This document shows, in pieces, positions 4,375-47,072 of a DNA stretch of 64,000 nt. A program made the position numbers and the translations under genes. Location: NCBI GenBank assembly GCA_965228735.1, contig OZ245838.1, positions 1,824,001 through 1,888,000 of the forward strand, given 5' to 3'. The notes beneath the pieces are model-generated. The model searched no databases, was not told the origin of the DNA, and saw only the letters and a list, made by a program, of their open reading frames with translations. Source of the stretch: Planctomycetota bacterium. GTDB lineage: Bacteria > Planctomycetota > UBA1135 > UBA2386. Within the stretch, counting starts at the first letter, position 1. Each line of letters starts with the position of its first letter.

Positions 4375-4430
4375 GAGCACCCTCGACGGCGCTGTTGGCG
4401 ACGCTCTAATGGGGCGTCGCGCAGCGCCTC

Positions 4431-5621
4431 ATGTCGAGACCCCACGAAGATTCCCCCGCCCCACGGGCCAACCGCGATTCCGGCGATTCGGCCAGCGGCG
4501 ATTCGGCCGAGAGGGGGCCGGCCAACTACTGGGACTACATCCAGGTCGAGCAGCTGCTCGCGATGCAGCGCGGCACCGCCAAGGCGGAAGCCGAGCTGAC
4601 CGACGACGAGGTCCGCTTCATCGTCATCCACCAGATCGACGAGCTGTGGTTCAAGCTCGTCCTGCGTGAGCTCGTGAGTGCGCGCGACCTGTTCGCGCGC
4701 GAACCGGTCCCCGAGGACGCCGTCGCGAGCGCCGTTCTGCAACTCGGCCGCGTCGCAATCTGCTTCGACCTCGCGTCGCAGCACTTCCGCCTCATGGAGA
4801 CCATGCGGACGCAGGACTACCTGCGCTTCCGCGACAAGCTGCACCCGGCCAGCGGTTTCCAGTCCGCCCAGATGCGCGAGATCGAAGTGCTGCTGGGTCT
4901 GCCCGATGGCGCCCGCATCCCGCTCGGCAACGAGGGCAGCTACCTCGACGCGCTGCGCGAGGCCGACGGCAGCCCATCGCCCGCGCTGCGCCGCGTCGAA
5001 CGCCGCATAGCCGACCTGCCGACCCTGAAACAGGCCGTCGACAACTGGCTCCACCGCACGCCGATCGACGGCAGCCACCCCGGCGACGACGGCGACGACG
5101 CCACCGTCCAGCGCTTCGTGGATCGCTATCTCGAGGGTCACGAACGGATGTACGACAACGCGATCGCACAGGCGGTGCAGATGCAGGCCCTCGCGGACGC
5201 CGACGAGGAGCGGCTGCGGGCCCGCTACCGCGGCCAGTTCGAGAGCGCCGAGCGCCACCTGCACGCCGAGGACGTGCCGGCGGAACAACGGCCGTTCGTC
5301 CGGCGCCTGCGCGCCGCGATCCTGTTCATCGACAGCAACCGCCGACTCGCGCTGCTGAGCTGGCCGGGCCGCGTCATCGACACGCTCGTCGAGCTCGAGC
5401 AGGCCATGCTCACGTTCCGCCAGCGGCACGCGCGCATGGTCGAACGCGTCATCGGCCGCCGCGTCGGCACGGGCGGCAGCGACGGCGTCGCGTACCTCGA
5501 TCAGACCGCGCTGACGTATCGCGTGTTCACCGAGATCTGGGCCGCGCGCACGCTGCTGCTGCCCCCGGAACTCTGCCCCGAGGTCAGCGACCCCGAGTTC
5601 TACGCCCTCCGCCAGGACTGA
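4431..5621 (+). CDS. kynA: Tryptophan 2,3-dioxygenase family protein
   Basis: Motifs Y.DY, FIVIHQIDELWFK, SGFQSAQ.R.IE and RHARMVERVIG...GTGGS.G..YL. Confidence 0.9.
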   Translation: MSRPHEDSPAPRANRDSGDSASGDSAERGPANYWDYIQVEQLLAMQRGTAKAEAELTDDEVRFIVIHQIDELWFKLVLRELVSARDLFAREPVPEDAVASAVLQLGRVAICFDLASQHFRLMETMRTQDYLRFRDKLHPASGFQSAQMREIEVLLGLPDGARIPLGNEGSYLDALREADGSPSPALRRVERRIADLPTLKQAVDNWLHRTPIDGSHPGDDGDDATVQRFVDRYLEGHERMYDNAIAQAVQMQALADADEERLRARYRGQFESAERHLHAEDVPAEQRPFVRRLRAAILFIDSNRRLALLSWPGRVIDTLVELEQAMLTFRQRHARMVERVIGRRVGTGGSDGVAYLDQTALTYRVFTEIWAARTLLLPPELCPEVSDPEFYALRQD

Positions 5622-5631
5622 CCCACCCGGA

Positions 5632-6836
5632 TCAGCGGCGACGGAAGCGGCGGTTCTCGGGTCGGGACAGGCGCCGCGTGAACGTGAGGAGGCCGTCGCG
5701 CTGGCGCCGCTTGCGGAAACCGAGCAGGTGGAAGATCTCGGTGACGAACCAGCGCGCGACGCCCCGGTTCACGAGGATCGTCGTGCGGTCGTCGGGGTCC
5801 CGACGCACACCGGGTAGCAGGGTGACGAAGCGATCGCAGCGCAGCCAGCGCAACGCGGCGGCGACGCGCAGCCAGAACCGTCGCACCCGCCGCGCGAGGA
5901 AGAAGCCGTCGTCGCCCTGCGGCTGGTAGAGCGGCAGCATGACGAGCGCGGGCCGCGGTGCCCGGATCTCGCCCGAGCGGTCGCGCGCGAGAACGTCGCC
6001 CTGCTCGACCGGCTGGAAGTTCACGAACCCGGGCAGCATCTCGAACTCGTCGGCCGGCGCGATCACGTGCCGCAGGACGATCTCGACGACCGGCGGCGTC
6101 GCGCCGACCGCGGCCGCGAGCAGGTCGACGAACGGCGCGAGGTCCGGCGCCGTCCCGTTCCGCTGCGCGGGACCGAGCATTCCGAGGTAGTCGAGCGTGC
6201 GCCACACCGCCGCCTCGTGGCGGTTGACCGAGCCCGGATCCTCGTGCTGCCCGGCCTCGACCGCGAGCCCCATGACGCCGCGATCGGCGAACCACTCGAG
6301 CGAGGCGCCCTCGAGCGTCTCTTCGATGCCGAGGATGATCGGCACGCCGGTCGCGAGGCCGAGACGGCGATTGTCGATCGTGTCGGCGAGGCAGAGGAAC
6401 GGCGCGCCGGGCGCCGAGCTCGTATGCAGGTCGAGCACGACGACCGGACCGCTCGCCGTCTTCAGCAGCTGTTCGAAGTGCGCGATGAGCTCGCGCTGCT
6501 CACGATCCTCGGCCAGCGGCTCCGCGCCGGCGGCCGCCGCCGCGGCGACGCGGTCGCGCATCGCCGCGATGCTCCTCGCATCCCAGCCGCGGTTGAGGTC
6601 GCGATCGAGGAACCGGCGCTTCGCCGCGAGCGCCGCGACGTTGCCGCGCAGCGCGACGACGCGACCCGCGATCTCGAGCTCGAGCTCGGACAACCGCGCC
6701 AACAGCTGCCGCGCGGCGTGCACGCCGGCGGGCTCGTTGCCGTGCACGCCCCCCAGGACGATCAACGTCGGGCCGGGTCGCCCGCAGTCCCAGGTGCCGA
6801 GTTCGCGCGGCGTCGTCACGACGTCGAGCACGTCAC

Positions 6837-9114: not shown

Positions 9115-10334
9115 AAGCCGTTGAACATGATCCGCTTCTGCTTGACGATCGGGTGCGTCAGGTCGACGACGAGGTCGCCCTTGAGCAGGCCGCGGGGCGC
9201 GTCGTCGGAGACGGCGATCTCGACGATGAGCTTGTTGCCATCGTTGCGGGTCGAGACGGAGACGTGCTCCTCGCCGATCGTGAGCTTCTCGAGCGTCAGC
9301 TTCTCGGCCTCGATCTTGGTGCCGTCGTTCGGCTCGAAGACGACCTCCTTCTTCATCTCCTTGCCGCGGCGAATCATGCCCAGCGGCAGGAAGCCACCCG
9401 GCTTGACTTCGAGCGGGCCCTGCACGAGCGCCATGACCCGCAGGTCGAACGACGACTGGCCGCGCACGTCGGTGAGGAACTTGAGCACGCCGCCGCCGCC
9501 AGCGTCCGTGCCGACCGGGCCGTACTTGCCGGAGATCGTCCACGTCGCGCGGTCGTTCTCGAGCTTCTTCTCCCACTTGACGTCGAACGCATCGCTGCCG
9601 CCCGTCATGCCCGTGATGTTGAAGTCCGGGTTGAGCGGCGAGGTCACCCGCACGGTGAACTCACGCGTCTCGTTCCACGTCATCTTGTTGAGATTGATCT
9701 CCGACGGCGAGACGACGAACATCTTGGCCGACTTGCCGCTCCAGCGCAGCTTGAACTGCGACAGGTCGTCGTCGGTCGTGTGCACGTCGAGGTGCGCCAC
9801 GCGCGGGCCGGGCACGTTGGGGATGTCGAGGTGGACCTCGACCTCACCCTTCTCGCCGGCGCCGATCGTGATCTGCTGCACGCGCTCGCGCTCGGGGCCC
9901 GTGCCGCTCTTGTTGAGACGGTAGAGCTCGTTCGGCTTCGGCTTCGACGACAGCTCGTACGTCCGATCGCCGACCCGGATCACCGCCTTCGCACAGGTGC
10001 AGCTGCCGCGCAGCGAACGCCAGCTGATCTCCTCCGACTTCGGGTTCTCGAACTCGAAGCGGCCGACCGCCTTCTGCGCGCCGAAGAACGTGCCGAGGTC
10101 GATCTCGGTCACCGGGAACCACGAGTTCGGCGGCAGCTTGTTGACCCCGAACTTCTGCGGGGTGGCCGTCTGGAACTTCGGGCGGTTCGGCTGGACCTTG
10201 CCAGCGTCCTCGCCCGCCTTGAGGTCGGCGCCGGTCTTGGCATCGACCTTCTGCTGGGCGCGCAAGCCGTTGTCGGGCAGCGCGATCGCCAGCATCGTCA
10301 GGCCGGCAGTAGCGATTCGGAGGTGCAGTTTCAT
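9105..10334 (-). CDS. Secreted DUF1573-like (Ig-like) protein
   Basis: Signal peptide MKLHLRIATAGLTMLAIAL; 'F.FEN......I...SCTC' motif. Real start is inside the longer 771-aa ORF call. Confidence 0.7.
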   Translation of the reverse strand: MKLHLRIATAGLTMLAIALPDNGLRAQQKVDAKTGADLKAGEDAGKVQPNRPKFQTATPQKFGVNKLPPNSWFPVTEIDLGTFFGAQKAVGRFEFENPKSEEISWRSLRGSCTCAKAVIRVGDRTYELSSKPKPNELYRLNKSGTGPERERVQQITIGAGEKGEVEVHLDIPNVPGPRVAHLDVHTTDDDLSQFKLRWSGKSAKMFVVSPSEINLNKMTWNETREFTVRVTSPLNPDFNITGMTGGSDAFDVKWEKKLENDRATWTISGKYGPVGTDAGGGGVLKFLTDVRGQSSFDLRVMALVQGPLEVKPGGFLPLGMIRRGKEMKKEVVFEPNDGTKIEAEKLTLEKLTIGEEHVSVSTRNDGNKLIVEIAVSDDAPRGLLKGDLVVDLTHPIVKQKRIMFNGFVR

Positions 10335-10595
10335 TGTTCGTTCGACTCGTCGGGATCGAGACTTTCTGGCTCGCAACCCGCAGAAACCCTCCGTGCGGGC
10401 GCTCCGGGCAACCACCAGACGGGCCGGAGCGGAATCCGGTCGCCGTTTGGGACGGAGCAGTATACCGATCGTCGAGCGAAAAACTCCCGGACCGAGCCAG
10501 GCCTTCCCGCGTTGGGACCAGAGCCGGAACGCCGCTGGGACCGGCGGTGCCGCCCCCTCGCTGGAATGTGGCGCCCGACCCGGCACGATGCCCGA

Positions 10596-11249
10596 ATGGC
10601 AATCCGGCTCGCCGCTCTCGCGCTGCTCCCGTGCCTCGGCCTCGGGAGCTGCTGCACCATGGCCCGGCTGTTCTGCGGCCCGGACAAGTCCGAGTGGATC
10701 AGCGAGTCCTACGCGACCCCGACGGCCACGGTGAAGACGGTGCTCGAGGCGATCCGGCGCGACGATCCGGACGTCATGTATCGCGCGTTCTCGGAGAGCT
10801 TCAAGGCCAGCAACGGCTTCGACAACATGACCTACAAGCTCGCCTGGGAGCAGCTCAAGGAGACCATCCCCGGGCTGCACCTCGCCGGCTACGCGGACGT
10901 GCCGGAGCCGACCCTCGGCGACAACGGCGCGACGTTCGTGCTCGACATCGAAGGGCGCAAGCTGCGCCTCGACCTCGTTCGCCAGTCGTTCCTCGAGATG
11001 CACTGGCAGCGCGAAGTGGCCGACGACCCCGACGCGCCGCCCGGCGAGATCAAGCGCCGGCTCGGCTCCTTCAGCCAGGCGATGTCGGCGACCTACCTCG
11101 AGGACGCCGAGGTCGAGACCTCGCGGATCACGCTGCGCCCGTTCCTCGTCGAGCACTTCAACGAGGACGGCATCCCGCTGCGGAACATCGACAGCGTCGG
11201 CATCCTGCGGCGCTGGCTGGTCGCGGGCCTCGAGTTCCTCGAGGAGTGA
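10596..11249 (+). CDS. Putative lipoprotein
   Basis: MAIRLAALALLPCLGLGSC lipobox-like N-terminus; 3' part of the 9153..11249 ORF with good codon usage. Confidence 0.7.
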   Translation: MAIRLAALALLPCLGLGSCCTMARLFCGPDKSEWISESYATPTATVKTVLEAIRRDDPDVMYRAFSESFKASNGFDNMTYKLAWEQLKETIPGLHLAGYADVPEPTLGDNGATFVLDIEGRKLRLDLVRQSFLEMHWQREVADDPDAPPGEIKRRLGSFSQAMSATYLEDAEVETSRITLRPFLVEHFNEDGIPLRNIDSVGILRRWLVAGLEFLEE

Positions 11250-11274
11250 TCGAGGCCCGCGACCGCGGACCGCC

Positions 11275-13506
11275 CTACTGCAGACAGATGCGGAACCGCA
11301 TGCCCTGCGTCGCCGACAGCCCCATCGGCCCCGCGGGGTCGACCGGGATGATCTGCGAGAACAGGTAGAGGTTGTCGAAGAACGGATCGTTCGGCACCGC
11401 GAACGGGAACCCGATGTCACCGTTGCCGTCCGCGAAGCGCAGCTCGGTCACGGCCGGGCTGGCGACGAGCGCCGTGATGCCGAAGACCGGGTTGTTGTCC
11501 GGCGCGTAGTTCAGCAACAGGAACGTCGCCGCGTTCGCCGGCGCACCGCCGCCTTCGATCAACGGCGTGGCGCCGATGCACGCGGGCTGCGACAGGTCGA
11601 TCGTCGGAATGCCGCTGCCGCCCGCCGTGCCGGTGCCGTAGAGCTGCGGCGGCGACGAATCCGACGTCTGCGTCACGAGCACGTCGTCGATCGCCCAGCC
11701 GCCCGAGACGCCCGACCCGTTGGTCTGCAGCACGAAGCTGATCCGGAACTGCGACGCCGTGTTCGTGACCGGCGCGAGATCGATGTCGATGTCCTGCCAG
11801 CCGCCGTCGTTCTGCCCGACCACGTTCACGTAGACGATCGCGCCGTTGACCCGCACGGTCGCGATGTCACCCGGGTAGACCTCGAGCCAGCGGCGGAAGC
11901 GCAGACGCAGGTTCTGCAGGCCGTTCGTCGGGATGATCGGCGACAGCAGCGAGCAGCTCGCGTTGTTGGCATACGAACCGTTGGTCCCGTTGCCGAGGTC
12001 GTTCGCATACACGTTGTTGCCGGAGAACGCCGACGCGGGGTCCTGCCAGGACGTGCCGCCGGAGCTGCCGGCCTGGCCGCCCGGAGCGCCGCGCTCCCAG
12101 TCGTCGTTGAACCCGCTGTGGGTCCAGCCGAGGTCGCTCTCGAAGTCGTCGAAGAAGACCTCGTTGATCGTGCCGATGAGGAACGTGTGGGTGTCGACCT
12201 GCGGCGATCGCACGGTCCCGTACTGATCGTCGGCCTCGATGTAGTACTCGACCTCGGTGACCGCGTCCTGACCCGGGATCGACGCCCGGTACTCGTTCGG
12301 CTGCCCCGTCGGGTTCATCGGGGCCGCGATGAAGCTGCCCGAACCGACCACCCGCCACTGCAGCGTCACGCTGCCCAGCGGCTGGTTCGTGGTGACCACG
12401 GCGTCGACGTCGTACGGCCCGTCCTCGTTCGCCGTGTTGGTGAGCGGCGTGTGGCTCATCGCGAGCGTCGTCAGGTTGGGTTTGACGACGTAGAGCCCCG
12501 TCGTCCGGTCGGACACGAGGATGTTGCCCGACGGCAGGAACGGGTAGCAGCCCCACGCGCCGTTGAAGCCGCCCGAACTGCCGGGCCACGTGTCGTACGA
12601 CGCGACCTCGACCGGGTTGCTCGGGTCGCTGATGTCGAGGCACCGGTAGCCCTCGGTGTACCAGCTCACGTGGCACAGGTTGCCGATGATGAAGGCGTTG
12701 TGCGGGATCGAGCTCGGGTTCGGCGTGAACGTGCCGAGGCCGACCGGGTTGGTCTTGTTCGTGATGTCCCAGAACCGCACGACGCCGCCCGACACCTCGT
12801 CGGTCGTCACGCAGAGCGTGCCGGCCGCGTTGGGCCACGCGTTGTGCGTGAAGCTGCCCGGCGTGTTGGAGTCGCTCAGCGTCGTCGGCGGGAACGTCGA
12901 CACGTCGAAGATCCGCAGGTCGCCGTTGTAGATCATCGAGCCGTAGCCGTAGCCGTTCTCGACGCAGAGATCGTGGTAGTAGTTCGAGTTGCCCTGGCCG
13001 TACGCGAAGCCGAGGAACGGCGGATTCGTCGGGTTGGCCGCGAGGTCGTAGACCGGCGTGCCGGTGTTGCAGCCCGCGAGGTAGAGCCGGCCCGCGCCGA
13101 CATCGACGCAGACGTTGTGCGAGTTGTTCGAGTTGCCGGCGCCGACGACGCCGACCACGGACGGGTTGTTCGGCGTGACGAGGCTGAGGATCTGGAAGCC
13201 CTGACCGGCCTCGGTGCCGACGTAGGCGTACTGACCGTAGGTCCGGATGTCGCGCCACCCGGACGCCGCCCACGGGAAGAAGCCGCGTTCGACGGGCGCG
13301 GCGGGGTTGGTCACGTCGACGACGACCGTGCCCGTCGTCGTGCCGAGCAGCGCGTACTCGCTGCCGTTCGGCGCCGTGTAGCCCCAGACGTCGTTGTACG
13401 GGCCGTGGTTGTTGAACGTGCCGAGCAGCGTGCAGTTGACGCCCTGGGCGGTCAGGGGAGCGGCCGCGCAGACGGCGAGGAGGAGCAGCGAGCGGGGAAT
13501 GTGCAT
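11275..13506 (-). CDS. Choice-of-anchor B family (LVIVD-repeat) secreted protein
   Basis: Signal peptide; NDVWGY...EYAL, WRDIRTY, YYHD, FTHNAW, PHN, GAWGCYPF motifs. Confidence 0.85.
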   Translation of the reverse strand: MHIPRSLLLLAVCAAAPLTAQGVNCTLLGTFNNHGPYNDVWGYTAPNGSEYALLGTTTGTVVVDVTNPAAPVERGFFPWAASGWRDIRTYGQYAYVGTEAGQGFQILSLVTPNNPSVVGVVGAGNSNNSHNVCVDVGAGRLYLAGCNTGTPVYDLAANPTNPPFLGFAYGQGNSNYYHDLCVENGYGYGSMIYNGDLRIFDVSTFPPTTLSDSNTPGSFTHNAWPNAAGTLCVTTDEVSGGVVRFWDITNKTNPVGLGTFTPNPSSIPHNAFIIGNLCHVSWYTEGYRCLDISDPSNPVEVASYDTWPGSSGGFNGAWGCYPFLPSGNILVSDRTTGLYVVKPNLTTLAMSHTPLTNTANEDGPYDVDAVVTTNQPLGSVTLQWRVVGSGSFIAAPMNPTGQPNEYRASIPGQDAVTEVEYYIEADDQYGTVRSPQVDTHTFLIGTINEVFFDDFESDLGWTHSGFNDDWERGAPGGQAGSSGGTSWQDPASAFSGNNVYANDLGNGTNGSYANNASCSLLSPIIPTNGLQNLRLRFRRWLEVYPGDIATVRVNGAIVYVNVVGQNDGGWQDIDIDLAPVTNTASQFRISFVLQTNGSGVSGGWAIDDVLVTQTSDSSPPQLYGTGTAGGSGIPTIDLSQPACIGATPLIEGGGAPANAATFLLLNYAPDNNPVFGITALVASPAVTELRFADGNGDIGFPFAVPNDPFFDNLYLFSQIIPVDPAGPMGLSATQGMRFRICLQ

Positions 13507-37403: not shown

Positions 37404-37755
37404 GGGGGCGATCGGCTTCGACCGGATGTCGACTCGTTCAGGGTGGCGCGCCGAGGTCCGGTGCACCTCGTTAATCCCGCCGGAAAACCTTAACTGCCAA
37501 CACGCAGTACTCCCTCGCTGCCTAAACAACGGTAACGAGCGTCGAGGCTCCTTCGCCTGCGGGGGGCCGAGACGACACACAGCAGGCTGGTCGTCGGTGG
37601 CTGCTCGGCCCATCGACGGCGAGACACAGTCGAGCTGGCTCTTGCCGCCCCTGTTCGTCGGGACGGTCGGAGTGAGAACCAACGGCGAACTACGCGCGTA
37701 GAGGCTCTGTTCGAAGCATCCTGGGACGCGGGTTCGATTCCCGCCGCCTCCACCA
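37404..37755 (+). ncRNA. ssrA: tmRNA; resume-codon tag (A)ANTQYSLAA at 37496-37525
   Basis: 5' GGGGGCG pairs with 3' CGCCTCC-ACCA with a G3:U pair; T-arm GCGGGTTCGATTCCCGC; tag ORF ending LAA-stop preceded by TTAACT. Confidence 0.95.
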
Positions 37756-37816: not shown

Positions 37817-38272
37817 TCATAATTTCGGATCCGTTCTAGGGGGTTCGGTTACGTCGGTAGTTGTTCCAGGGTGTTCGGCGTTGTTCGCCGCTGTAGCACC
37901 CGGCTCAGCACCCGGCGGGGGTGATTCCTGACAGTCGGGGGTGTTCAAGCTCCCGGAGGGTTTCCACACCACGTCGTCCAGCACGGCGTTGCGCAGCGCA
38001 TCCGGGGCGGTGTCGATGAAGTGGCCCGGAGCGACCTCGACCACCGTGTCGGGCGCGGGCTTCCAGTTCACCGGCGGCAGCGGCGTGCGACCTCCGACGA
38101 CCGTGACCATTCCGATGATGTCGTGCTCAGGCACGCCGCTGCGTCGCACGAGATCCCGCACACCGGCCTCGTCGTGCTCCGTCGGCGGCAGGCCCGCAAA
38201 CGTCTCCCCGAACTTGTAGCGTTTGAGCACGCCATCCCGGACGTAGTGGAACTCGTACCGAGCGTCAGACAT
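37817..38272 (-). CDS. Phage hypothetical protein
   Basis: ATG with GGAGG SD, overlapping the upstream gene; C-terminus runs through the att arm. Confidence 0.55.
   Translation of the reverse strand: MSDARYEFHYVRDGVLKRYKFGETFAGLPPTEHDEAGVRDLVRRSGVPEHDIIGMVTVVGGRTPLPPVNWKPAPDTVVEVAPGHFIDTAPDALRNAVLDDVVWKPSGSLNTPDCQESPPPGAEPGATAANNAEHPGTTTDVTEPPRTDPKL
37823..37916. promoter_or_regulatory. Putative att-arm protein-binding array
   Basis: GTTC at 37833, 37843, 37863, 37873, 37883 (variants at 37823, 37853), i.e. 10-bp phasing; direct repeat AGCACCCGGC at 37895 and 37907. Confidence 0.6.
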
Positions 38273-38981
38273 CGCCTCCCTCCTCCGGAGTCGCCTCGGC
38301 CGCGGCGTTCCACAGCTCAGCCATTCGCTCGGCCTCTGCCTCGGTCAGGCCGTCGCCTCGGATCTTGTGTCCGACGGTTGCGACCCAGCCGTCGAGTTCC
38401 GACCAGAACTGCACCTCATCGTCGATCGTCTCGACGCGCAGCTTGCCGTTGATCGCGATCTCGTCGTGACCTGTTGGGCCCCTCGCCGCGGACGCGGCAC
38501 CGTCGGATTCTGACAATGCCGCAATCTCATCCTCGGTCATCGACTCGCGCAGGCGCTTGACGCCCTCGGCAAACCCGAGCTCCGGCTTCGGGTTCGCAGC
38601 GTCGTGGCGAGCGAGGGCTTCGCGAAGGTCATCCGCCTCAAGCGGCTGATACTCCTCGAATGTCGCCAGCAACGCCCGCGCCGTATCCCGCACGACCCGC
38701 AGCGAGCGCAGTTCGGCCATGAACGGGTCAACCGGTGGCGACATCTCAGTGTCCTGGCACGACCAACCTCGGTTGTCACCATCGAGCGAGATGTGGAACA
38801 GCTGGCAGCAGGAACACCTCGCGGCCTCCACGCGCTCGTAGCGGTAGCGGCCCTTCACGTACGGCTGCTCGCACCACGACTTGGCCTCGGCCTCACTGTC
38901 GAACAGGTGACCGTGGCAACAGCCTCGATCAGGCACCATCGAAACCAGCTTCCAACGGGTCTTGGTTTCCACCGACATCAT
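38265..38981 (-). CDS. Phage hypothetical protein (Cys-rich N-terminus)
   Basis: ATGA overlap with the integrase stop; GGAGG SD; 3' part of the 38265..39464 ORF. Confidence 0.6.
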   Translation of the reverse strand: MMSVETKTRWKLVSMVPDRGCCHGHLFDSEAEAKSWCEQPYVKGRYRYERVEAARCSCCQLFHISLDGDNRGWSCQDTEMSPPVDPFMAELRSLRVVRDTARALLATFEEYQPLEADDLREALARHDAANPKPELGFAEGVKRLRESMTEDEIAALSESDGAASAARGPTGHDEIAINGKLRVETIDDEVQFWSELDGWVATVGHKIRGDGLTEAEAERMAELWNAAAEATPEEGGDV

Positions 38982-40195
38982 GACTGCTGCTCCTCCTCCG
39001 GCTTCCCCCAGAACGACTCCGACAACAACCGCGCCCCATCCCGCAGATCCTCGCGCCCGAGCTTCTCGTAGTGCTTGGCGGTCAGCTTCGGGTCGACGTG
39101 GCGGATCAGCCGCCGGCCGGTCTGCATCGGCACGCCCGCGCGCGCGATCAGCGTCGCGAACGTGCTGCGCAGCGCGTGGAAGTCGAGCGTCCGGCCCTCG
39201 TCGTCCACCACCGGGATACCGGCGTGCTTGGCGTCGGCGCGCACCCGCTCGGCGATGTTGTTCGGCACCTCGAACACCAGCGAACGCGGCGGCACGGCCC
39301 TGCCGGTCCGGCGCGCGGTCTCGGTGCGCTGTTTGCGCAGGCGCTCGGCCAGCACCGGGTCGAGCGGGATCGGGTCCTTGCGCTTGGCCTTGGTGAACTT
39401 CGCGCGCGGCGTCACCCAGGCGTCGACGCCGAGCTCGAGGTCGGCCCAGCGGATGCTGCGACACTCGCTCTTGCGCAGGCCGGTGAGCGCCACGAACAGG
39501 TAGAGCGTGCCGCGGCGCCAGCCGATCCAGCGGAAGCGCTCGAGGGTCACCTCGTGCGCGTCGGGGTTGGCGTCGCGGTAGTTGTCGCGGGACCGGCCCT
39601 CGGCCGCCTCGACGAGCAGCTTGACCTGCTCGGCGGTGAGCGCCAGGCGCTCCTTGCTGGCATCGCTCGGCTTGCCGACGGCGCCGAGCCGCCGGAACGG
39701 GTCCTTCGGCAGCCGGTCGAGATCGGCCAGCCAGGCGCCGAACTGGCCGAGCGCGGTGGCGTAGTGGTCGCGGGTCTTCACCGACAGGCCGGCTTCGTCC
39801 ATCAGGCGGCCGAGGAAGACCTCGGCCTTGGCGACGTCGAGGTCGCTGATCGAGGTCGCCTTCATCTCGCGGAAGGCCTTGAGCAGCCGCGAGCGCATCA
39901 GCTTGCGATGCTTCTCGGTGCGGTTGCGGGAGCTGATGCCGGCGAGGAAGTCCTCGACGTGCTGCGTCAGCGGGCGGGCGCGGTGCTTGCGGTAGGGATC
40001 GCCGAGGCCGACCTCGTCGCGGGCGGCTTCGCGTTGGCGTTGCGCGAGCAGCTGCTCGCTGGCCTTCTTGTCGGTGTACGCGCGCTCTCGTTGCCGCTTG
40101 CCGTTGGCGGTGTACTGGATCGTCCAGACCTTCTCGAGCTTGCCGTCGGCGAGCTTGCGGCGGTACAGCGATCCGTGAGAGCGGCGGCGGGGCAC
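38978..40195 (-). CDS. int: Tyrosine integrase
   Basis: N-terminal arm-binding-like domain; catalytic residues apparent in TGLRKSE, TKAK, FHALR, RH.D..LT..HY. Confidence 0.92.
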   Translation of the reverse strand: MPRRRSHGSLYRRKLADGKLEKVWTIQYTANGKRQRERAYTDKKASEQLLAQRQREAARDEVGLGDPYRKHRARPLTQHVEDFLAGISSRNRTEKHRKLMRSRLLKAFREMKATSISDLDVAKAEVFLGRLMDEAGLSVKTRDHYATALGQFGAWLADLDRLPKDPFRRLGAVGKPSDASKERLALTAEQVKLLVEAAEGRSRDNYRDANPDAHEVTLERFRWIGWRRGTLYLFVALTGLRKSECRSIRWADLELGVDAWVTPRAKFTKAKRKDPIPLDPVLAERLRKQRTETARRTGRAVPPRSLVFEVPNNIAERVRADAKHAGIPVVDDEGRTLDFHALRSTFATLIARAGVPMQTGRRLIRHVDPKLTAKHYEKLGREDLRDGARLLSESFWGKPEEEQQS

Positions 40196-40198
40196 GGG

Positions 40199-40414
40199 TC
40201 AGTCCTTGGCGTTGTCGGGCTTGGCCAGCCAGGCGCGGACCTCGTCGGCGACGAACAGCCGGCGGCCGCCGCGGACGCGGGGCTTCGGGAACGCGCCGGT
40301 GGAGACCATCTTCGCGATCGTGGTGCGGCCGAGGCCGACGACCTGGGCGACCTCGTGGTAGCTCCAGGCGATCTTCTCGTTGAGCGGGATGGGGTGGGTT
40401 TCGGTGTCGGTCAT
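40199..40414 (-). CDS. Excisionase / AlpA-family HTH protein
   Basis: EVAQVVGLGRTTIAKMVSTGAFPKP...GGRRLF..DEVRAWL; GAGG SD; directly upstream of int. Confidence 0.85.
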   Translation of the reverse strand: MTDTETHPIPLNEKIAWSYHEVAQVVGLGRTTIAKMVSTGAFPKPRVRGGRRLFVADEVRAWLAKPDNAKD

Positions 40415-40422
40415 TTCGGTCC

Positions 40423-40686
40423 TCAATCGTCGTGCGCCGGACTGATATCCTCCACCTCGGCGCTACTCACGCCGTCCACGCAGCTCAGGTAGTGCGCCAC
40501 GTGCCGCCCCCTCGCCACGATCACCATCACAGCCTCTCCCGATTCCAACGCGCGCGACAGAGCGGTGCTCGGATCGCCATGCAGGCCGAGGAACGAGGCC
40601 ATTGATTCCTCGGCCTGGTCCGCGACCATCTTCGCCGCGAGCCGGCGCGCGGCGCGCGCCACGCTGTCGGGGTTCAGGTCAGCCAC
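40423..40686 (-). CDS. Phage hypothetical protein
   Basis: GTG with GGAGG SD, packed in the operon. Confidence 0.55.
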   Translation of the reverse strand: MADLNPDSVARAARRLAAKMVADQAEESMASFLGLHGDPSTALSRALESGEAVMVIVARGRHVAHYLSCVDGVSSAEVEDISPAHDD

Positions 40687-41092
40687 GGAGCTGATCCTCC
40701 TTGCTTCGGACTCGCAGCTGGTCTACGGAGGAGCGCAGCGCGCGAGCGCAGCGCTCGAGCAGGTTCGCGCAGGCGTCCGGATCGCCGCGGATCACGAGGT
40801 AGCGAGCCTCGAGCGGGCCCCTGGCCTCGCCGATGCTGATGCGGAGACAGTCGGGGTCTTCTGGCAGGCGTCGCATGTGGACGCAGAACTTGTTGAGCTC
40901 GGCCAGCGGTTGCTCGTTGGGGCCGCCGGCGGTGATCACGGACTCGCCGTTCTCGACCATCTGCTTGGCGCGCTGCTCGAGGCGGTCGAACTGCTCTTGA
41001 GCGATCTGCTCACGCCAGGGTGATTGGTCGCCGTACAGCAGGCGACGGAGGTTCTCGGAGATCGGGGAATCGCTGTCGGGGTGGGTTTGCAT
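40679..41092 (-). CDS. Phage hypothetical protein
   Basis: ATG 41092 with GGAG SD (MQTHPDSD...). Confidence 0.6.
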   Translation of the reverse strand: MQTHPDSDSPISENLRRLLYGDQSPWREQIAQEQFDRLEQRAKQMVENGESVITAGGPNEQPLAELNKFCVHMRRLPEDPDCLRISIGEARGPLEARYLVIRGDPDACANLLERCARALRSSVDQLRVRSKEDQLRG

Positions 41093-41255
41093 GATCAGTT
41101 CTCCGCAGTTGGTTCCGACATGTTGTCGAAGATGTCCGCACGGCGGCGGAACCGTGCTTCTTGCAGAGGTCGAACACGCGGAACGCGTACTCGCGACGCG
41201 TATCACGAATGCGGGCCTCGGCGAACCGTGCTTCCTTGTCGTCCGCGCTACCCAT
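41010..41255 (-). CDS. Possible small phage protein
   Basis: ATG with GGAGG SD overlapping the upstream stop (MGSADDKEAR...); overlaps the downstream gene by ~80 bp. Confidence 0.35.
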   Translation of the reverse strand: MGSADDKEARFAEARIRDTRREYAFRVFDLCKKHGSAAVRTSSTTCRNQLRRTDHANPPRQRFPDLREPPSPAVRRPITLA

Positions 41256-41850
41256 GCCCGGCCTCCCGCAACTCCCGCTGCACGAGCACCAGTGCAGCCC
41301 CAGCCTGCGCCAGAGATGGCTGCAAGTCGTCGCACTGCAGGCCGAGGGCGAACAGATCGAACGGGCTCGAAAGGCGTGCGACCTTCTCGGGGTGGACCCG
41401 AGCAACCGCGCGAACCCGGTCGACAAGTGACTGCGCGGTGCCGAACAGCGTCCAGCTGGAGCCGAACCCGAGGACGGTGCCGAGCGCTTCGGTGAGGTCG
41501 TCGCGGAGGTCGCGGGCGTAGCGGAACGCGGCCTCCTCGCCCTCGAGCGCGGCGTCGCGCTGCGCCTCGAGGTCGATCTCGTCGGCTGGCTCGGGGCCGC
41601 CGCAGGCCACCGAGGCGCCGTCGCCGTGCTCAGCATCGAACTGGGCGGCAGCGCACCGCGCCGCGTCGTCCATGGCGTGCTCTTGCGCCAGCGCCTCGGC
41701 CTGGCCGGCCTGGCGCAGGATGCGGTCGACCTCCTCGAGGACGCCGCGCCGGATGTTGCCGAGCGAGTCGCCGGTGGTGTCCTTCTGCAGGCGCTCGCGC
41801 CAGCCGACGAGCTCGTCGTGCAGGACCTTGGCGGCCAGGGCGCTAACCAT
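41248..41850 (-). CDS. Phage hypothetical protein
   Basis: ATG with GGAGGTG SD; helical, normal codon usage. Confidence 0.65.
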   Translation of the reverse strand: MVSALAAKVLHDELVGWRERLQKDTTGDSLGNIRRGVLEEVDRILRQAGQAEALAQEHAMDDAARCAAAQFDAEHGDGASVACGGPEPADEIDLEAQRDAALEGEEAAFRYARDLRDDLTEALGTVLGFGSSWTLFGTAQSLVDRVRAVARVHPEKVARLSSPFDLFALGLQCDDLQPSLAQAGAALVLVQRELREAGHG

Positions 41851-41973
41851 GGGTCACCTCCCCGCGCGAAGTGCGCCGCGCCGCCAGTCCTCCGCACGCG
41901 ACGGGTGTCTCACGGCCGGTTCGGCCGGCCGCGGGAACACCCCGCGACCGGATCAACCGCGCGGCGCGGCGGG

Positions 41974-42049
41974 TGGTTGCCGGAGCGGGACTCGAACCCG
42001 CGACCTTCGGGGCATGAGCCCGACGAGCTGCCTGCTGCTCCATCCGGCG
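41974..42049 (-). tRNA. Phage-encoded initiator tRNA-Met (CAT)
   Basis: 76-nt cloverleaf; C1:A72 mismatch, G2-C71, C3-G70, A11-U24, three consecutive G-C anticodon-stem pairs, GTTCGA T-loop, encoded CCA. Confidence 0.92.
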
Positions 42050-42274
42050 AAAGAAGGTCCCCGAGCCCGCGGTCACGGCGCCGGTCAGAACACCGCTGGG
42101 GCGTGGCATCACCCCACGGGCTCGGGGTCGCGGCCGCGGGCGGGAACTCACGGCCGTGAATGGGAAAGGCGGCAGCGGGCGGCGGATACTGGTACTGAGG
42201 TCGCCGCCTGCGGGGCTTTCGGGAAAAGGGGAAGAAGGAGAGTCTGCCCCGGCTCGCTGCCGTGTGTTCGGTTC

Positions 42275-42339
42275 GGAGAAAAAGGGCCCGGCCGCATCGG
42301 CACGCTCCCTGCGCGTGCCGACCCTCGCGCGGCCGGGCC
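42275..42339 (-). terminator. Candidate intrinsic terminator in the leftward leader
   Basis: 11-bp outer plus 9-bp inner perfect stems (42285-42339) followed by CTTTTTCTCC on the minus strand. Confidence 0.5.
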
Positions 42340-42929
42340 GTCCCATGCACCTGCTCTGGCAGATTGCGTTCGACGCGCGCGACACCGCCCGGGTGCGCGC
42401 GGCCTGGTGTTCGGGCGGGGAAAACCTCGGGGTGGCTGTCACCGCAGCTGCGGCGCGGGCATCACTCCCTCGATGGCTTCTCGCCGAGAGGGTAGGAGCG
42501 TCGCCCGTGCCCAGCGGGTGGCGGTCCTGGTTGCGTGTACCGACCCCGCAACCCCGGCCGGCGGTTTCGGTAAGGCCCCCGAGAAAATCGCGGGAACGCG
42601 CATCCTCGGCCACCGCAGAGGCTTGGACCGGCAGCGCCGCGGCTCCTGCGGGCAATCCCTTAAGGCGGTATCGTTCTCCTCGGCGATGACGAGGAGTCCG
42701 GGAACCGACAGTCGAAAGAGTGGACCCACCGCTGCGGCCAGGCGCAGCGGTGAAGCCGTTCAGCTGGCCGCTGCTCGCGGTTGTGTGACCACCCGGTCGC
42801 ATGCACCGAGCCGCGCCTGGCGCTGTGCGGCTCGTTTCGGCGGCCAGAAGACTGGAAGCCGCGGTCGGAGAGTTCCGCCGCGGCAGTTGTGTCGTGGTTC
42901 GCATGGCGACTCCTGGGTGGTCACGGGGG

Positions 42930-43016
42930 TGAGCATTACCGGAAAACTATTGCTTCTGCAAGCAGTGGATTCCCTGGTCTGCCAAGTTTCTCGTCGGGTG
43001 CGTATGCATTCACCGA
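42930..43016. promoter_or_regulatory. Divergent promoter/operator region of the prophage switch
   Basis: AT-rich patch between divergent units; minus-strand TTGCAG (42956-42961) -35-like box; inverted repeat TGCTT-N4-AAGCA (42951-42964) overlapping it. Confidence 0.45.
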
Positions 43017-43066
43017 CCATCTGGGCAGACTGGCGAAGCGCTTCACGCCCCTCCCAGCCTCGACCA

Positions 43067-43492
43067 ATGCCGGACCTGCCGATCCTCGCCGCTCGGATCC
43101 GCGCCGCGCTCGCGCTCCGTCAAGCGACGCATGCGGCGCTCGCGGAGCGCACCGGGCGCTCGCTACGAACCGTTGGCAACTGGGTCGCGGGGCGCACTGA
43201 GCCGGAAGCGTCTGAGGTCGCTCTGATCGGCCGTGCTCTTGATGTCTCGACCGACTACTTGCTCGGACTGGTTGACCACGAACAAGGGCTACGGCCTGGC
43301 ATGTGGGTCATCGACGCCGACTCTGCACAGGTTCCCGCGCAGGGCGAGCGCTGGGCCTTTCAGATTCCGGCACGGCCACGACTTGTTGGCGAAGCCGAGA
43401 AGCTGAGGATTGAGAGCGCCGGCGAAGCGCAGCTTCGGCCGCGACCGCGCGGCCGTCCGCGTCGCAAAGGAGGGGACGATGGCCATCAATGA
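43067..43492 (+). CDS. XRE-family HTH repressor
   Basis: RIRAAL...THAALAERTG.S..TVGNW..G..EP....IGRALDVSTDYLLG; 3' part of the 41672..43492 ORF; no S24 peptidase motif recognised. Confidence 0.85.
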   Translation: MPDLPILAARIRAALALRQATHAALAERTGRSLRTVGNWVAGRTEPEASEVALIGRALDVSTDYLLGLVDHEQGLRPGMWVIDADSAQVPAQGERWAFQIPARPRLVGEAEKLRIESAGEAQLRPRPRGRPRRKGGDDGHQ

Positions 43493-43832
43493 CGCATGCT
43501 GGGGTCGCCGGGCGGCGCAGTCCCGCGAAGCGACGCTGACGCGCACCTGCAGGCGCCTCCGCGCGTTCGCAGCCTTCTCGTTTTTGCTCGCAACAGCAGC
43601 CACGACGAAAGTCGCCTACGACATCTACACATGGCAGATGCCGAGCTCGATCGCGCGGCAACTCGCGCTGAAAGCTCAAACGGCGCACGAGCAGCGCGCA
43701 GCGATCGTGGCTTTGCACCAGGATGCCCGCGCATCGATCGAAGTCTTACGCCTGATCGTAGACGAGGGCGGGCCGAACGCCGAGCGCGCCCGCAACGCCC
43801 TCACGTACCTTCACGCCAAGACCGGGCGCTAG
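43479..43832 (+). CDS. Small membrane protein
   Basis: AGGAGG SD; one hydrophobic segment; coupled to the repressor gene. Confidence 0.6.
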   Translation: MAINDACWGRRAAQSREATLTRTCRRLRAFAAFSFLLATAATTKVAYDIYTWQMPSSIARQLALKAQTAHEQRAAIVALHQDARASIEVLRLIVDEGGPNAERARNALTYLHAKTGR

Positions 43833-44167
43833 GACGGGTCGACGATGTCGCCGTTTGCTGGCGCGTTGCCGGTCGGATCCGTGATGATGAAGGACTCCGC
43901 GTCGTCGGGGACAGTGATCGTGGTGCCCGACGAGCTCGTGATCTCCACCGTCTTCGGGCCCCCATCTGGCACCCACTTGATGTCGAGCGTCACCGGCAGC
44001 GTGCCGCTGTACTCGATCGTCATCGAGCCACCTTGCGTCGGTGGTGCCGGGTCGTACGTGATCTCCGCGGCGTCTGAATCGCTCATGCTCGCGCTCCCTG
44101 CTTCGTAGTCCGGTGGGATGATACCCAGGAGCGCAAGCACGGACAGGACCGACCAGTTCCATTCCAT
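43829..44167 (-). CDS. Small secreted beta-rich protein
   Basis: Hydrophobic N-terminus and a Thr/Ser/Asp-rich beta-type body. Confidence 0.55.
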   Translation of the reverse strand: MEWNWSVLSVLALLGIIPPDYEAGSASMSDSDAAEITYDPAPPTQGGSMTIEYSGTLPVTLDIKWVPDGGPKTVEITSSSGTTITVPDDAESFIITDPTGNAPANGDIVDPS

Positions 44168-44234
44168 GCCACCGGCATCGGCTGGCGGCGGGGGCTTCTT
44201 GACCCGGGGCGCGCTCGGAGTCTAGGTTTGAGGC

Positions 44235-44969
44235 ATGGAGAGGACGCCGCTAGACGCCAATACCAAAGTCGCCGGGATCGCCATCGCCAGCGCACTATTG
44301 GTCGCAGGATTCATTGCCTGGGCCGCATCGCAGGAATACCGCAACCTCACTGACTCCCAGACCAGCGCGACCGCACACTCCGCTGCCAAACCCTATCGCC
44401 CAGGTGATGGCATCCGCCGGCGGATGCGCGAAGAGGAAGCGGACAAGCTACGCGCAAGCGGAGCCCCACAGACCGAGATCGATCGCCTACAGGCAATCGA
44501 TCAACTCACGAGGCACCACCTGCGCGCCGCGGCGCTGAGGCTCGCGTCGATCCTGCGCACGCGGCCACGCTGCGCTGGCGCTCAGCTGTCAGAATGGAAG
44601 TGGCGCGACTGCGACGGAAAAACACCGGCCTCGGTCGAGCAACGCCCCGATGGGACTTGGGCGAAGCTTGACGCAGGCTACGCCGACCGCCCCACCCACG
44701 CAGTCCGATTCCATCCGCAGAAGCCAGAACTCTTCCCTCAATGCGAGCAGTGCTTCCAAAGCAGCGAGTCCGTGTTCCCTTGGGAATTCGCGCTCGCGTC
44801 AGCGGTACCGGAGGAGCTGCGCCGCGCCCCCACACCGTACGAAGAGATGGTCGACGCAGCAGCTCAACGTCTTCGAGCCAAGAAAGAGATCGAAACTGCC
44901 ACTCAGAAGGAGGGCATCAAGAAGGCCTATCGTTTCAATGAGCAGCTTGGCATCAAGATTCCGCGCTGA
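44235..44969 (+). CDS. Membrane-anchored hypothetical (moron) protein
   Basis: GAGG SD; TM VAGIAIASALLVAGFIAWA; lower GC; CxxC motif. Confidence 0.7.
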   Translation: MERTPLDANTKVAGIAIASALLVAGFIAWAASQEYRNLTDSQTSATAHSAAKPYRPGDGIRRRMREEEADKLRASGAPQTEIDRLQAIDQLTRHHLRAAALRLASILRTRPRCAGAQLSEWKWRDCDGKTPASVEQRPDGTWAKLDAGYADRPTHAVRFHPQKPELFPQCEQCFQSSESVFPWEFALASAVPEELRRAPTPYEEMVDAAAQRLRAKKEIETATQKEGIKKAYRFNEQLGIKIPR

Positions 44970-44987
44970 CCGCCAATCAAGACGAAG

Positions 44988-45590
44988 GTGCCAATGCGCC
45001 CCTACGCGTCAGCAGCTCCTCGGGCGCTGAAGATGCTCGATTCCCGTCAAGCCCTGATCTCGAACCTCATCCTGTTCGCCTCGGACTTCGAGATGATCGA
45101 AGAGCTACGCGGAGTGGGTGTGCGCCGCAAGCTGCTCTCCGGGCTCGTGTCCTTGGGGCTTGAGAAGGTGGGCGTAAAGACGAGATGGAAGCACTGCCAC
45201 GAGCAGATCGAGAGAACCTTTTCGAAGGAGGACGCGGAACTCGTCTACGAGGAGCTCGACTGGCTGCGCATGGATTGGAATTCCTCCTCTGCGGTGAATG
45301 CGTCCGTCTTCGCCCCTGAGGACCGCAACGAGCGATTTGCCCTCAAGCTTCGCAGTGCCATGACGTCAGCGGAGGCGTACGTGCGCAGCATGGACAAAGG
45401 GGAGTACCCAGTTGGTTCTCGCTCAGAACATTGGGCGAAAAACCGAAGGGTCACCGCCGTGTCCGGGCTGGTTTGGCGCGCCTACCTTGATTCACTTCGA
45501 CGCGCCGAAGAGATGCGCTTGGCTCAGCCAGGCGCTCGCCCTTGGGCCGAGTGCCAGCAGCCGTCCGACGACTATCCGCGTCACTGGTGA
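44988..45590 (+). CDS. Hypothetical cargo protein
   Basis: Lower-GC ORF with globular composition; start uncertain. Confidence 0.55.
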   Translation: MPMRPYASAAPRALKMLDSRQALISNLILFASDFEMIEELRGVGVRRKLLSGLVSLGLEKVGVKTRWKHCHEQIERTFSKEDAELVYEELDWLRMDWNSSSAVNASVFAPEDRNERFALKLRSAMTSAEAYVRSMDKGEYPVGSRSEHWAKNRRVTAVSGLVWRAYLDSLRRAEEMRLAQPGARPWAECQQPSDDYPRHW

Positions 45591-45600
45591 GGCGGCGCGA

Positions 45601-45906
45601 ATGAACTCCAAGCTCTTCCAAACCGCCGATGACGTGTTCGACCACTTCATCCCGTCCTGGCGGAAGCACTCTCCAACCTGCGCGGTTTCCGACGCGACCG
45701 TCCAACGCACCCGCCCGGACCTAGGTGGCAAGGAGTGGCGCCGGATGCTCCGCAGTCGCGCCCGCGCCGCGGTCGCTGACGACGTCGAACAACAGCTTGC
45801 CGACGACTTCGACGGCTGCCTGTTCCCGTCCGTGATCTGCGACTGCCCGGAGTGCACGACCGACCTGGACGCGTTCGAGCGCCGCATGGAGCTCGCCGGT
45901 CGTTGA
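45601..45906 (+). CDS. Hypothetical cargo protein with C-terminal CxCxxC
   Basis: GAGG SD then MNSKLFQTADDVF. Confidence 0.55.
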   Translation: MNSKLFQTADDVFDHFIPSWRKHSPTCAVSDATVQRTRPDLGGKEWRRMLRSRARAAVADDVEQQLADDFDGCLFPSVICDCPECTTDLDAFERRMELAGR

Positions 45907-46343
45907 CCGCCAGCGCGGAAGTCCCTAGCGTGGACTGTGCCTAGCTTCCGCGACCAGCGCTCATGGCGACCCACACCCGGGCCGATATGAGAATGCCCGC
46001 CCGGCTGGTCCGGGCAGGGATCGCGCCCCTCCGGCTCGTCGACCAGCTTCCCGCAAAGAAATCAGGTCGGCGGGCCGGCTCTATTTCGGCTCCCTGACCG
46101 AATTCGCAACCCCCGGTGTTGACGTGCGTTCCGCACCGCGGAGCGCCAATGTCGCCCAATTCTGTCCGGACACCCTTGACGAAACCGCGTCCGAGGCGAA
46201 ATCTGCATACAGAGTGGGAGTCGCGAATCCCGCCGCCCCCACCGCCGTTTCCTGGGTCGCCGCGTCCTAGGAATACCTCGTTCGGATCCTCAATCTGACG
46301 GCCTCACTGGCCGATGGGATCCGACAGACTCTCGCCCGAGCCA

Positions 46344-46817
46344 ATGAGCCAGACTCCGCAAACCCTTCCGCTGCTGTTCACCTTCAGCCAACTCGTAGCC
46401 GGCAACGGCTTCGTGGCAGGCGTTCGGATGGCAGGCAAGGCGCTCGTGGAGGACGAGGACGACGAGTTCTGGGTGACTGGCGTCGCGCCCGTCGGCATCG
46501 CCGCATCCGGAGCGACCCGTGACGCCGCGCTCGCGGAGTTCCGGAAGGCCTGGACCTCGGTGCTGTTCGACCTCGCTGCGCAAGCCCAGTCGTTCGCGGA
46601 GTTCAAAACCGCGTCCGAGGCCTTCCTCGACAGCTCCGAGTCCCGCATCAGCGACCTGTGGGCAGCTGCCGTCGCGGTGATCCGCAACTCCGGCTACCAA
46701 GACCCGGAGCTGCAGCGCGGCAACGCGAACGACCAGCCGCGGTTCGAGGTCGTCGAGATCGTCCAGCCTGCGGCGGACGCGAACGAGTTCGACCCCAACC
46801 CGCTCCTCGCCGCGTAG
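46344..46817 (+). CDS. HicB-like antitoxin candidate
   Basis: EDEDDEFWVTGVAPVGIAASGATRDAALAEFRKA resembles the HicB partial RNase H fold; acidic. Confidence 0.55.
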   Translation: MSQTPQTLPLLFTFSQLVAGNGFVAGVRMAGKALVEDEDDEFWVTGVAPVGIAASGATRDAALAEFRKAWTSVLFDLAAQAQSFAEFKTASEAFLDSSESRISDLWAAAVAVIRNSGYQDPELQRGNANDQPRFEVVEIVQPAADANEFDPNPLLAA

Positions 46818-47072
46818 GTGAAGGTCGTTCTGCTGGGGAAGCTCCGCAAGGCACTCGAGAAGTGTCTTCCGGGCTGCGAGTGGAAACTCGGCGTCCACAA
46901 CTGGCACGTCTACCCGCCGGGCGGTGGTGCCTGCTTCCATGTCCCTTCGGGCCCGCACGGCAAGGGCGACCGCAGCGAGATCAAGGTGGGTTACGCCCGC
47001 CGAATGGCTCTGTTGTTCAAGATCGAGGACTGCTTTCAGACCGAACTGGGCTACCCCGCCAAGAAGAAGTAG
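46818..47072 (+). CDS. HicA-like toxin candidate
   Basis: 84 aa, basic; GVH..VY.P......VP..PH....EIKVGYARRM matches the HicA pattern. Confidence 0.55.
   Translation: MKVVLLGKLRKALEKCLPGCEWKLGVHNWHVYPPGGGACFHVPSGPHGKGDRSEIKVGYARRMALLFKIEDCFQTELGYPAKKK

Follow-up and report, generated by a model that had tools for sequence, protein, structure and literature searches.

We assign a probability of roughly 55% to the reading that a hairpin-rich region of about 1 kb, lying beside the repressor of a planctomycete prophage, is the translated 5′ end of the phage's lytic operon, with a tRNA and a predicted host-type small RNA nested in one open frame. The region is part of a 64,000-nt stretch of contig OZ245838.1 (hereafter the window; coordinates are window positions unless marked otherwise). 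A preliminary description of this DNA had offered three proposals: a new large structured RNA, an RNA-based termination or immunity switch, and a regulatory leader. The last of these holds in outline, in that the region opens the lytic operon, carries hairpins followed by U tracts, and places a hairpin over the next ribosome site. The small RNA at 42160-42270, which belongs to a family of the host, had been overlooked.

The prophage is 44 kb in length, sits at the 3′ end of the tmRNA, and is delimited by two copies of a 28-bp attachment repeat. Matches to PHROGs identify integrase, excisionase, repressor, internal virion, tail, major head, and head-tail adaptor genes, together with genes for portal/adaptor, both terminase subunits, RusA, and a replication initiator. 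This is a podovirus-type prophage of a planctomycete host. Its lytic genes are all on the minus strand, and its replication genes lie at the far right end (crude gene calls). A leftward operon would thus run from about 42930 to the attachment site and, after circularisation, through the replication genes to the structural genes, and the flagged region is likely its 5′ end. The divergent repressor starts at 43067 on the plus strand and matches both HTH_3 (Pfam) and a PHROG repressor. Because a sigma-70 consensus was not found in the interval between the two transcription units, the leftward promoter is placed there by inference. The features are as follows, those of the region being given in the direction of leftward transcription.

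37728..37755, plus strand: left attachment repeat, at the 3′ end of tmRNA (repeat search)
Genome 1905896-1905923, about window 81896-81923: right attachment repeat (repeat search)
42905..43066, no strand: divergent promoter/operator interval between repressor and leftward operon, richer in AT and containing an inverted repeat of 5 bp at 42951-42964
41843..42914, minus strand: AGGAG ribosome site (42914-42910) and 353-codon open frame, from ATG at 42904 to the stop at 41843
42700..42904, minus strand: 5′ hairpin cluster, comprising 42858-42884 followed by a pyrimidine tract, then 42807-42834 and 42727-42752; folding z -2.3 on the minus and -3.3 on the plus strand
42275..42339, minus strand: long hairpin of 11+10 bp with CUUUUUCUCC after it, immediately preceding the small RNA; z -3.9 (42275-42345)
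42160..42270, minus strand: predicted copy of the small RNA (CU-loop RNA), with outer stem 42262-42255/42177-42170 and inner stem 42251-42246/42216-42211
Same copy, minus strand: 24-mer loop 42244-42221, extra 3′ hairpin 42208-42178, and U/C tail
42050..42127, minus strand: branched hairpin with a 14-bp closing stem and ACCUUCUUU, directly 5′ of the tRNA; z -2.7 (42050-42135)
41974..42049, minus strand: tRNA-Met(CAU) of initiator type with encoded CCA; closest host tRNA at 6845727
41874..41971, minus strand: post-tRNA multibranch domain with an 11-bp closing stem, the outer stem unchanged in one relative; z -5.3 (41868-41976)
41855..41873, minus strand: hairpin of 7-8 bp that covers GGAGG, the ribosome site of the next gene (start at 41850)

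Two observations concern the surroundings of the prophage and its immunity region. Beyond the prophage, a second integrated element occupies the same tmRNA site (genome 1905990-1922105, about window 81990-98105); it carries a separate integrase-like gene, and the attachment repeat occurs there a third time. At 46314-47072 on the plus strand, two small genes resemble by eye what we take to be a HicB/HicA-type pair; a Pfam search of this pair returned no match.

The preliminary description reported no recognisable protein in the region. This statement stands insofar as searches of Pfam, PHROGs, and homologs with the 353-codon product were empty, but the AGGAG-led frame that spans the region had been missed. 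Both the small RNA and the tRNA lie within this frame, whose last 8 nt extend over the start of the next gene (41850). Its GC content at the three codon positions is 0.70/0.73/0.71, its codon score is -0.34, and there is no codon bias. An open minus-strand frame arises in 183 of 3,000 shuffles (6%), and both strands are open, as they are here, in 7 of 3,000. The plus-strand frame (41672-43492) lies in exact antisense register to the 353-codon frame and is stop-free for 606 codons, continuing in frame into the repressor.

Three related elements (L225, L227, and L250) are linked to this prophage via gene 41850, the repressor, or the gene behind the repressor. In each of them, a ribosome site and an ATG occupy the corresponding position right after the divergent promoter, and the first frames consist of 115-261 low-complexity codons ending in a hydrophobic C terminus. 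The first genes of L225 and L227 look coding, given their lower GC2 and frame-kept gaps, as all seven gaps in the first ~480 aligned bases are multiples of three. In L250, a hairpin/U element likewise lies within a second frame, the end of which overlaps the next start. The 353-codon product has no significant likeness to the L225 and L227 proteins and lacks their C-terminal hydrophobic segment, and a 19-nt match to L227 is read there in a different frame. A 16-mer from this match was rejected as a signal (53 of its 73 viral matches are ordinary coding sequence for G-V-L-T-G). Contig L227 (G002:C352), 12.5 kb long and near a tRNA-Ser, holds two small related elements at 3131-6222 and 9344-12319, both with a repressor, a disordered first gene with a hydrophobic helix end, a lipoprotein-like gene, and a homolog of gene 41850. 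Their shared hairpin, GGCUCCGG-N3-CCGGAGUC, has an alternative partner downstream.

One relative was recovered from run X15 as one contig (depth 2.45) with 25 differences over 41686-42075. The ten changes listed within 41854-41937 leave the 11-bp outer stem untouched and create no stop. They produce a clean 8-bp inner hairpin and strengthen the hairpin that covers the ribosome site (GGAGG) of gene 41850 to a perfect 8 bp. Since only two of the ten fall at third codon positions, the peptide itself seems unconstrained in this stretch. The changes thus give a thin hint that translation matters more than its product.

All stems listed in the preliminary description are present where it placed them. 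The stem 41874-41884/41961-41971 is a perfect 11 bp. In 42059-42072/42114-42127, 13 of the 14 positions match; the exception reads as G.U on the minus strand and as C.A on the plus. The remaining six fold as described, although 42529-42553 does so weakly (-9 to -11 kcal/mol). Compared with dinucleotide shuffles, 42050-42904 has a folding z of -3.2 on the minus strand and -3.9 on the plus strand. Both ends of the region beat their shuffles, but the middle third (42345-42699, z -0.7) does not and is unstructured. Among controls, 25 host coding 400-mers gave a mean z of -0.17 (lowest -2.95) and 25 of the 387 long host intergenic stretches, scored on the best strand, gave a mean of -0.69 (lowest -5.1). 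The region is therefore well folded yet within the intergenic range. The hairpin at 42275-42339 with its CUUUUUCUCC tract may be a terminator-like or a processing/stability element, and a strict terminator scan did not call it. The motif GAACACC does occur at 41935 and 42088, with its complement at 42406, as the preliminary description had it. However, with 20 copies in the window it was rejected as a repeated signal; its first copy is altered at 41937 in the X15 relative. The strand, left unresolved earlier, can be assigned as minus because G.U outnumbers A.C on the pyrimidine strand of the small RNA family and because the tRNA, the U/C tail, and the gene direction agree.

These folding results bear on the proposal of one large, ornate noncoding RNA beside a tRNA, which we consider very improbable. 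Phage RNAs of this kind, GOLLD and ROOL, are described as large, pseudoknotted, and covarying, and as lying near tRNAs (10.1101/2024.12.08.627333, in the part available). The likeness lies in several hundred structured bases, about 1 kb in all with the overall z scores given above, that are prophage-encoded and adjoin a tRNA. A metagenome contig from an otherwise different phage (L226) also preserves 843 nt of the region unchanged before diverging inside the next gene, but at 100% identity it is uninformative for covariation. Unlike GOLLD and ROOL, the region is modular, partly unstructured, and crossed by a frame with a ribosome site, and it matches no large-RNA model: an Rfam cmscan of 39000-46000, to E 5, returned the tRNA and three weak unrelated matches. 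Furthermore, no full-length relative, divergent or otherwise, was found in 61 related genomes or 50,697 phage records; the former yield only the tRNA and 27-mer matches, and the latter only the tRNA. A viral scan with the gene 41850 protein found nothing, and with the repressor protein it found only distant HTH proteins. The related elements have leaders of a different sequence, 350-800 nt long. Finally, the conserved part of the region is a module of ~90 nt that stands alone elsewhere. Other short matches are due to chance, as in G027:C139, where the match lies inside a Clp/HslU-type ATPase gene (a label given by reading the sequence).

The conserved module is recognised by its loop (42218-42244, 25-27 nt), which recurs exactly at other sites in the host genome and in most family relatives. 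An exact scan with the 24-mer found 93 stretches in species genomes and 12 IMG/VR contigs. A planctomycete taxon is named in 73 of the 80 titles listed for the genome stretches, and the 12 viral carriers amount to about nine distinct variants, with seven contigs rated complete. The family architecture spans ~90 nt and consists of a P1 closing stem, UU, a short P2 hairpin, GUAAAA, P3, the 25-nt pyrimidine loop, and a U-rich tail. We aligned 58 of the 81 distinct sequences found by exact loop match, trimming ends on the best P1 helix and leaving out near duplicates and longer or rearranged variants (L020, L022, L023, L024, L054, L104, L113); this alignment (A2) favours loop invariance and P1 pairing owing to its recruitment and trimming. 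Double-sided changes occur at 16 of its 18 pairs and 89% of cells pair, whereas none of 500 shuffles scored as high and slid partners scored lower. A fitted alignment of 73 sequences, which leans to the model, has double changes at all 18 pairs. On the pyrimidine strand, G.U combinations number 41 and A.C combinations 17.

A covariance model (R2), built largely from the host's own taxonomic family, matches 80 of 90 genomes in that family, 20 of 41 in the order, and 20 of 151 in the phylum. Distant members keep the scaffold and the C and U runs while the 5′ half of the loop varies. No Rfam family matched any of 11 viral or 8 host loci. From these comparisons, the CU-loop RNA is a predicted small RNA family that covaries and is absent from Rfam. 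A description of it was not found in the literature searched, including the main text of PMC5737381 (which has no occurrence of "Plancto" in the part available), or in the searchable part of the PMC10690425 supplements. The family may nonetheless be among the candidates of the latter study, since 127 planctomycete rows exist there and its files 1-2 fall outside that searchable part.

The genomic setting of the family indicates a stand-alone gene with mobile copies. A hydantoinase/oxoprolinase gene precedes the RNA at 16 of 62 loci with varied downstream neighbours, two opposite-strand genes flank it at 4 of 62, and several extra copies adjoin HamA, DUF5131, HSDR_N, DUF4062, or GIY-YIG genes. 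The host has five full copies besides that of the prophage. Full and partial loop copies there number ten, all on the minus strand and spread across both GC-skew halves; in three of them the loop is reduced to its 5′ 16 nt.

G000:C1 614398, 2834219, 4727909-4877625, 5177930, 5212894, 5936880, and window 42220, minus strand: loop copies of the host genome

In three host copies (L130, L131, and L132, at G000 4737638, 4776026, and 5212894), ~150 nt downstream of the RNA are also conserved, which suggests a repeated mobile cassette. Phage copies run in the same direction as the short genes around them, and the nearby genes that can be named encode helicase, exonuclease, or HTH proteins. In other phages the RNA mostly lies between genes rather than within a frame. 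Hosts and unrelated phages have the loop in unaltered form, and as judged from this conservation it likely lets a phage act on the partner of the host RNA.

The copy in the window departs from the family scaffold. It lacks the P1-UU-P2-GUAAAA-P3 three-way junction, having no P2 and carrying its extra hairpin 3′ rather than 5′ of the loop, and model R2 matches it only at positions 42-66, which is the loop alone. What it shares with the family is the U/C tail and the invariant loop, which is exact, predicted to be unpaired (P 0.90), and closed by a new CGGGGC/GCCCCG stem. Its folding z varies with the cut (-1.2 or -3.0). Given the missing P2, the loop-only match, and this dependence on the cut, the window copy could be a degenerate capture. 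Viral contigs L167 (2500-2522) and L022 (3001-3024) likewise have the loop on rebuilt scaffolds with the extra hairpin on the 3′ side. No convincing CU-loop RNA copy was found in L225, L227, or L250. The leader of L225 does contain an 18-nt match (E 1e-4) that ends eight bases into the loop, and its end could be a recombination joint at which the host loop was captured. A 17-mer common to the region and L225 was rejected as a signal, being at about background level in 301 genomes.

A different view is that the region is a decaying or fast-evolving gene for a disordered protein that happens to have acquired a tRNA and a fragment of a host RNA, with hairpins that are by-products of high GC and a loop that has no role here. 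The coding appearance of the first genes in L225 and L227 is in line with this view, as are the loss of the family scaffold and the joint-like end of the 18-nt match. However, the full 25-nt loop is exact, has been re-closed by a new stem, and is left unpaired; about nine phage variants retain the loop while rewriting the stems; and the end segments fold far beyond their shuffles. We therefore judge this explanation to be decidedly unlikely.

How the loop would act was approached by considering base pairing and protein binding. The loop resembles the host anti-Shine-Dalgarno end. However, its pairing to 5,358 predicted host start regions (crude gene calls) is no better than that of shuffled loops, and in each of six phage genomes at least 32 and at most 59 of 60 shuffled loops pair equally well. 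The best host target, a lone zinc-protease-like gene at -31.4 kcal/mol, was discarded because shuffled-loop minima of -26.9 to -32.4 match it. The best operon sites are G-rich starts that shuffled loops also pick, the prophage gene starts were set aside because all 14 shuffles favoured them too, and nothing above -21 was found for pairing with rRNA. Two genes between the integrase and the attachment site (38265-38981 and 37817-38272) have very G/A-rich ribosome sites, and their start regions rank 2nd and 12th of the 5,358 for loop pairing, as they also rank high with shuffled loops. With respect to proteins, Hfq and CsrA were not found in any of five genomes searched, all five of which have two Rho genes, while RRM genes are present in four and cold-shock domains in three. 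The host itself has two Rho genes and two RRM genes, and a cold-shock domain gene was not found in it. Two Rho paralogs (in the host at G000:C1 681659-682993 and 6717097-6718413) are present in the host order, and one of them has a long Arg/Gly-rich N terminus. A reading of the purine strand as a CsrA sponge was dropped, since no CsrA was found and the wobble pairs favour the opposite strand.

The closest precedent for pairing is the 6C small RNA (B11) of Mycobacterium and other Actinobacteria, whose C-rich loops act on many mRNAs through G-C pairs without a chaperone (PMC6486639, in the portion available). The likeness is in the high-GC, Hfq-less host and the C-rich single-stranded loop, and here too the C-rich loop is predicted to be unpaired, in a host with no detected chaperone. 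Whereas the available portion of that source describes 6C hairpins with C runs, the CU-loop RNA presents one 25-nt loop of mixed C and U on a three-way junction, belongs to another phylum, and has been copied by phages and islands. The Rfam 6C model matched neither the window nor the 11 viral and 8 host loci. Because a mode of action like that of 6C would leave little signal in the start-region test, we keep pairing slightly ahead of protein binding.

The main rival to pairing of the loop with mRNAs is that the loop serves as a decoy. It would bind a host protein with affinity for pyrimidine tracts (Rho, an RRM protein, or S1 of the ribosome), and phages and islands would carry it to titrate that protein, which could, for example, relieve foreign DNA of silencing by Rho. 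In E. coli, prophage genes are subject to such silencing by Rho (PMC12360218, in the part available). Such a decoy would account for 24 nt that are invariant on unrelated scaffolds while pairing targets have not been found, for the retention of C and U runs rather than exact sequence in distant members, and for extra copies beside HamA, DUF5131, HSDR_N, DUF4062, and GIY-YIG genes; two Rho and two RRM genes are at hand. On the other hand, order members without a model-detected RNA also have Rho and RRM genes, the host is without a detected cold-shock domain gene, and for loading Rho a loop of 25 nt would be short. The decoy explanation thus appears somewhat unlikely.

A further explanation, of the kind known from P4 CI and P1 C4, was also raised by the preliminary description. 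Such RNAs confer immunity or cause premature termination. Here, the RNA, once freed by processing of the tRNA, would pair with the ribosome site of its own leader (AGGAGUC), stop translation of the frame, and in this way bring about termination within the leader. The site 42908-42914 is complementary to the 5′ end of the loop, three related elements that lack the RNA have GGAGG instead, and the hairpin/U tracts and the open frame are in the right order. Against this, the pairing to the ribosome site of the leader is just 6 bp at -9 kcal/mol, GGAGUC occurs in 47 of 996 start regions that bear GGAG, and no self-target was found in six other carrier phages. The loop is also identical to that of a host RNA with five other copies, so it has no phage specificity to offer a self-targeting switch, and we find this account quite improbable. 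C4 antisense RNA regulates its own operon (PMC8198154, in the available part), and the likeness is that of a small RNA in a phage operon leader beside a translated frame. The present case differs in its host-wide loop, its adjoining real tRNA, and its want of a strong complementary site in the leader. Rfam includes C4 models, and no model for P1 C4 or P4 CI matched 39000-46000. The HK022 put RNA, a two-hairpin element just downstream of an early promoter, modifies RNA polymerase; hairpins are present here at 42807-42884, and there was no Rfam match for put.

Returning to the translated leader with nested RNA genes, we propose the following course of events. On induction, the leftward promoter would fire and ribosomes would load at the AGGAG and ATG (42904). 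Ribosomes in the frame would then carry transcription past the hairpin/U tracts and the C-rich stretches and would open the hairpin over the ribosome site of the next gene, a coupling step to which, as a whole, we give roughly even odds. The host has two Rho genes that could act at the C-rich stretches. Other transcripts would be cut at the tRNA ends to give a free initiator tRNA and an RNA of ~110 nt, which is a fairly likely step. The freed RNA would quite probably share its host partner with the chromosomal RNA and act on that partner in trans. Its exposed C/U loop may pair with G-rich mRNA leaders in a chaperone-free, 6C-like manner, a possibility that falls a little short of an even chance when weighed among all readings. 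The phage would thereby supplement a host regulator as lytic growth begins. A more speculative combination strikes us as unlikely. In it, temperate and free phages of planctomycetes would have captured the host RNA repeatedly, with the loop exact and the scaffold rebuilt, and the first lytic frame would be a translate-or-process switch: ribosomes would read through a given transcript and, by coupling, turn on the lytic genes downstream, or the transcript would be cut into regulatory RNAs, the loop serving as a decoy for a protein such as Rho.

The Rho attenuators at tnaC and cruR, where upstream frames exert the control (PMC12360218, in the part available), resemble this arrangement in having an upstream frame whose ribosomes would shield pyrimidine-rich RNA. 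As far as the available part of that source allows comparison, the present frame differs in its length of 353 codons, in holding whole RNA genes, and in having no known ligand-sensing stall motif. If the frame does function as proposed, it would represent a design that lets an operon begin with RNA genes and yet not lose its transcription to termination. In either case, annotation tools would miss the region, reporting a junk ORF or an empty gap. Regulation by small RNAs is almost uncharted in planctomycetes, a lineage that appears to be without Hfq and CsrA. A covarying RNA that is near-universal in its family and whose loop has been copied letter for letter by phages and defence islands would mark a control point of the host, and the loop offers a ready bait for finding it. 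The copy in the window indicates that the loop, rather than the junction, is what the phage retains.

The phage tRNA noted in the preliminary description was confirmed by an Rfam match on the minus strand. It has a C1.A72 mismatch, A11-U24, and three G-C pairs in the anticodon stem, which we take to be the hallmarks of initiator tRNA-fMet. Its anticodon loop has G37-C38 where the host initiator has A-A. Altered anticodon loops in phage tRNAs have been proposed to evade anticodon nucleases, and where cleavage is at the anticodon itself, phages as a rule do not encode tRNA-fMet (PMC10264068, in the part available). The present tRNA resembles those described there in that positions 37-38 differ from the host counterpart, whereas this phage, unlike most of those covered in that part, carries a tRNA of the initiator type.
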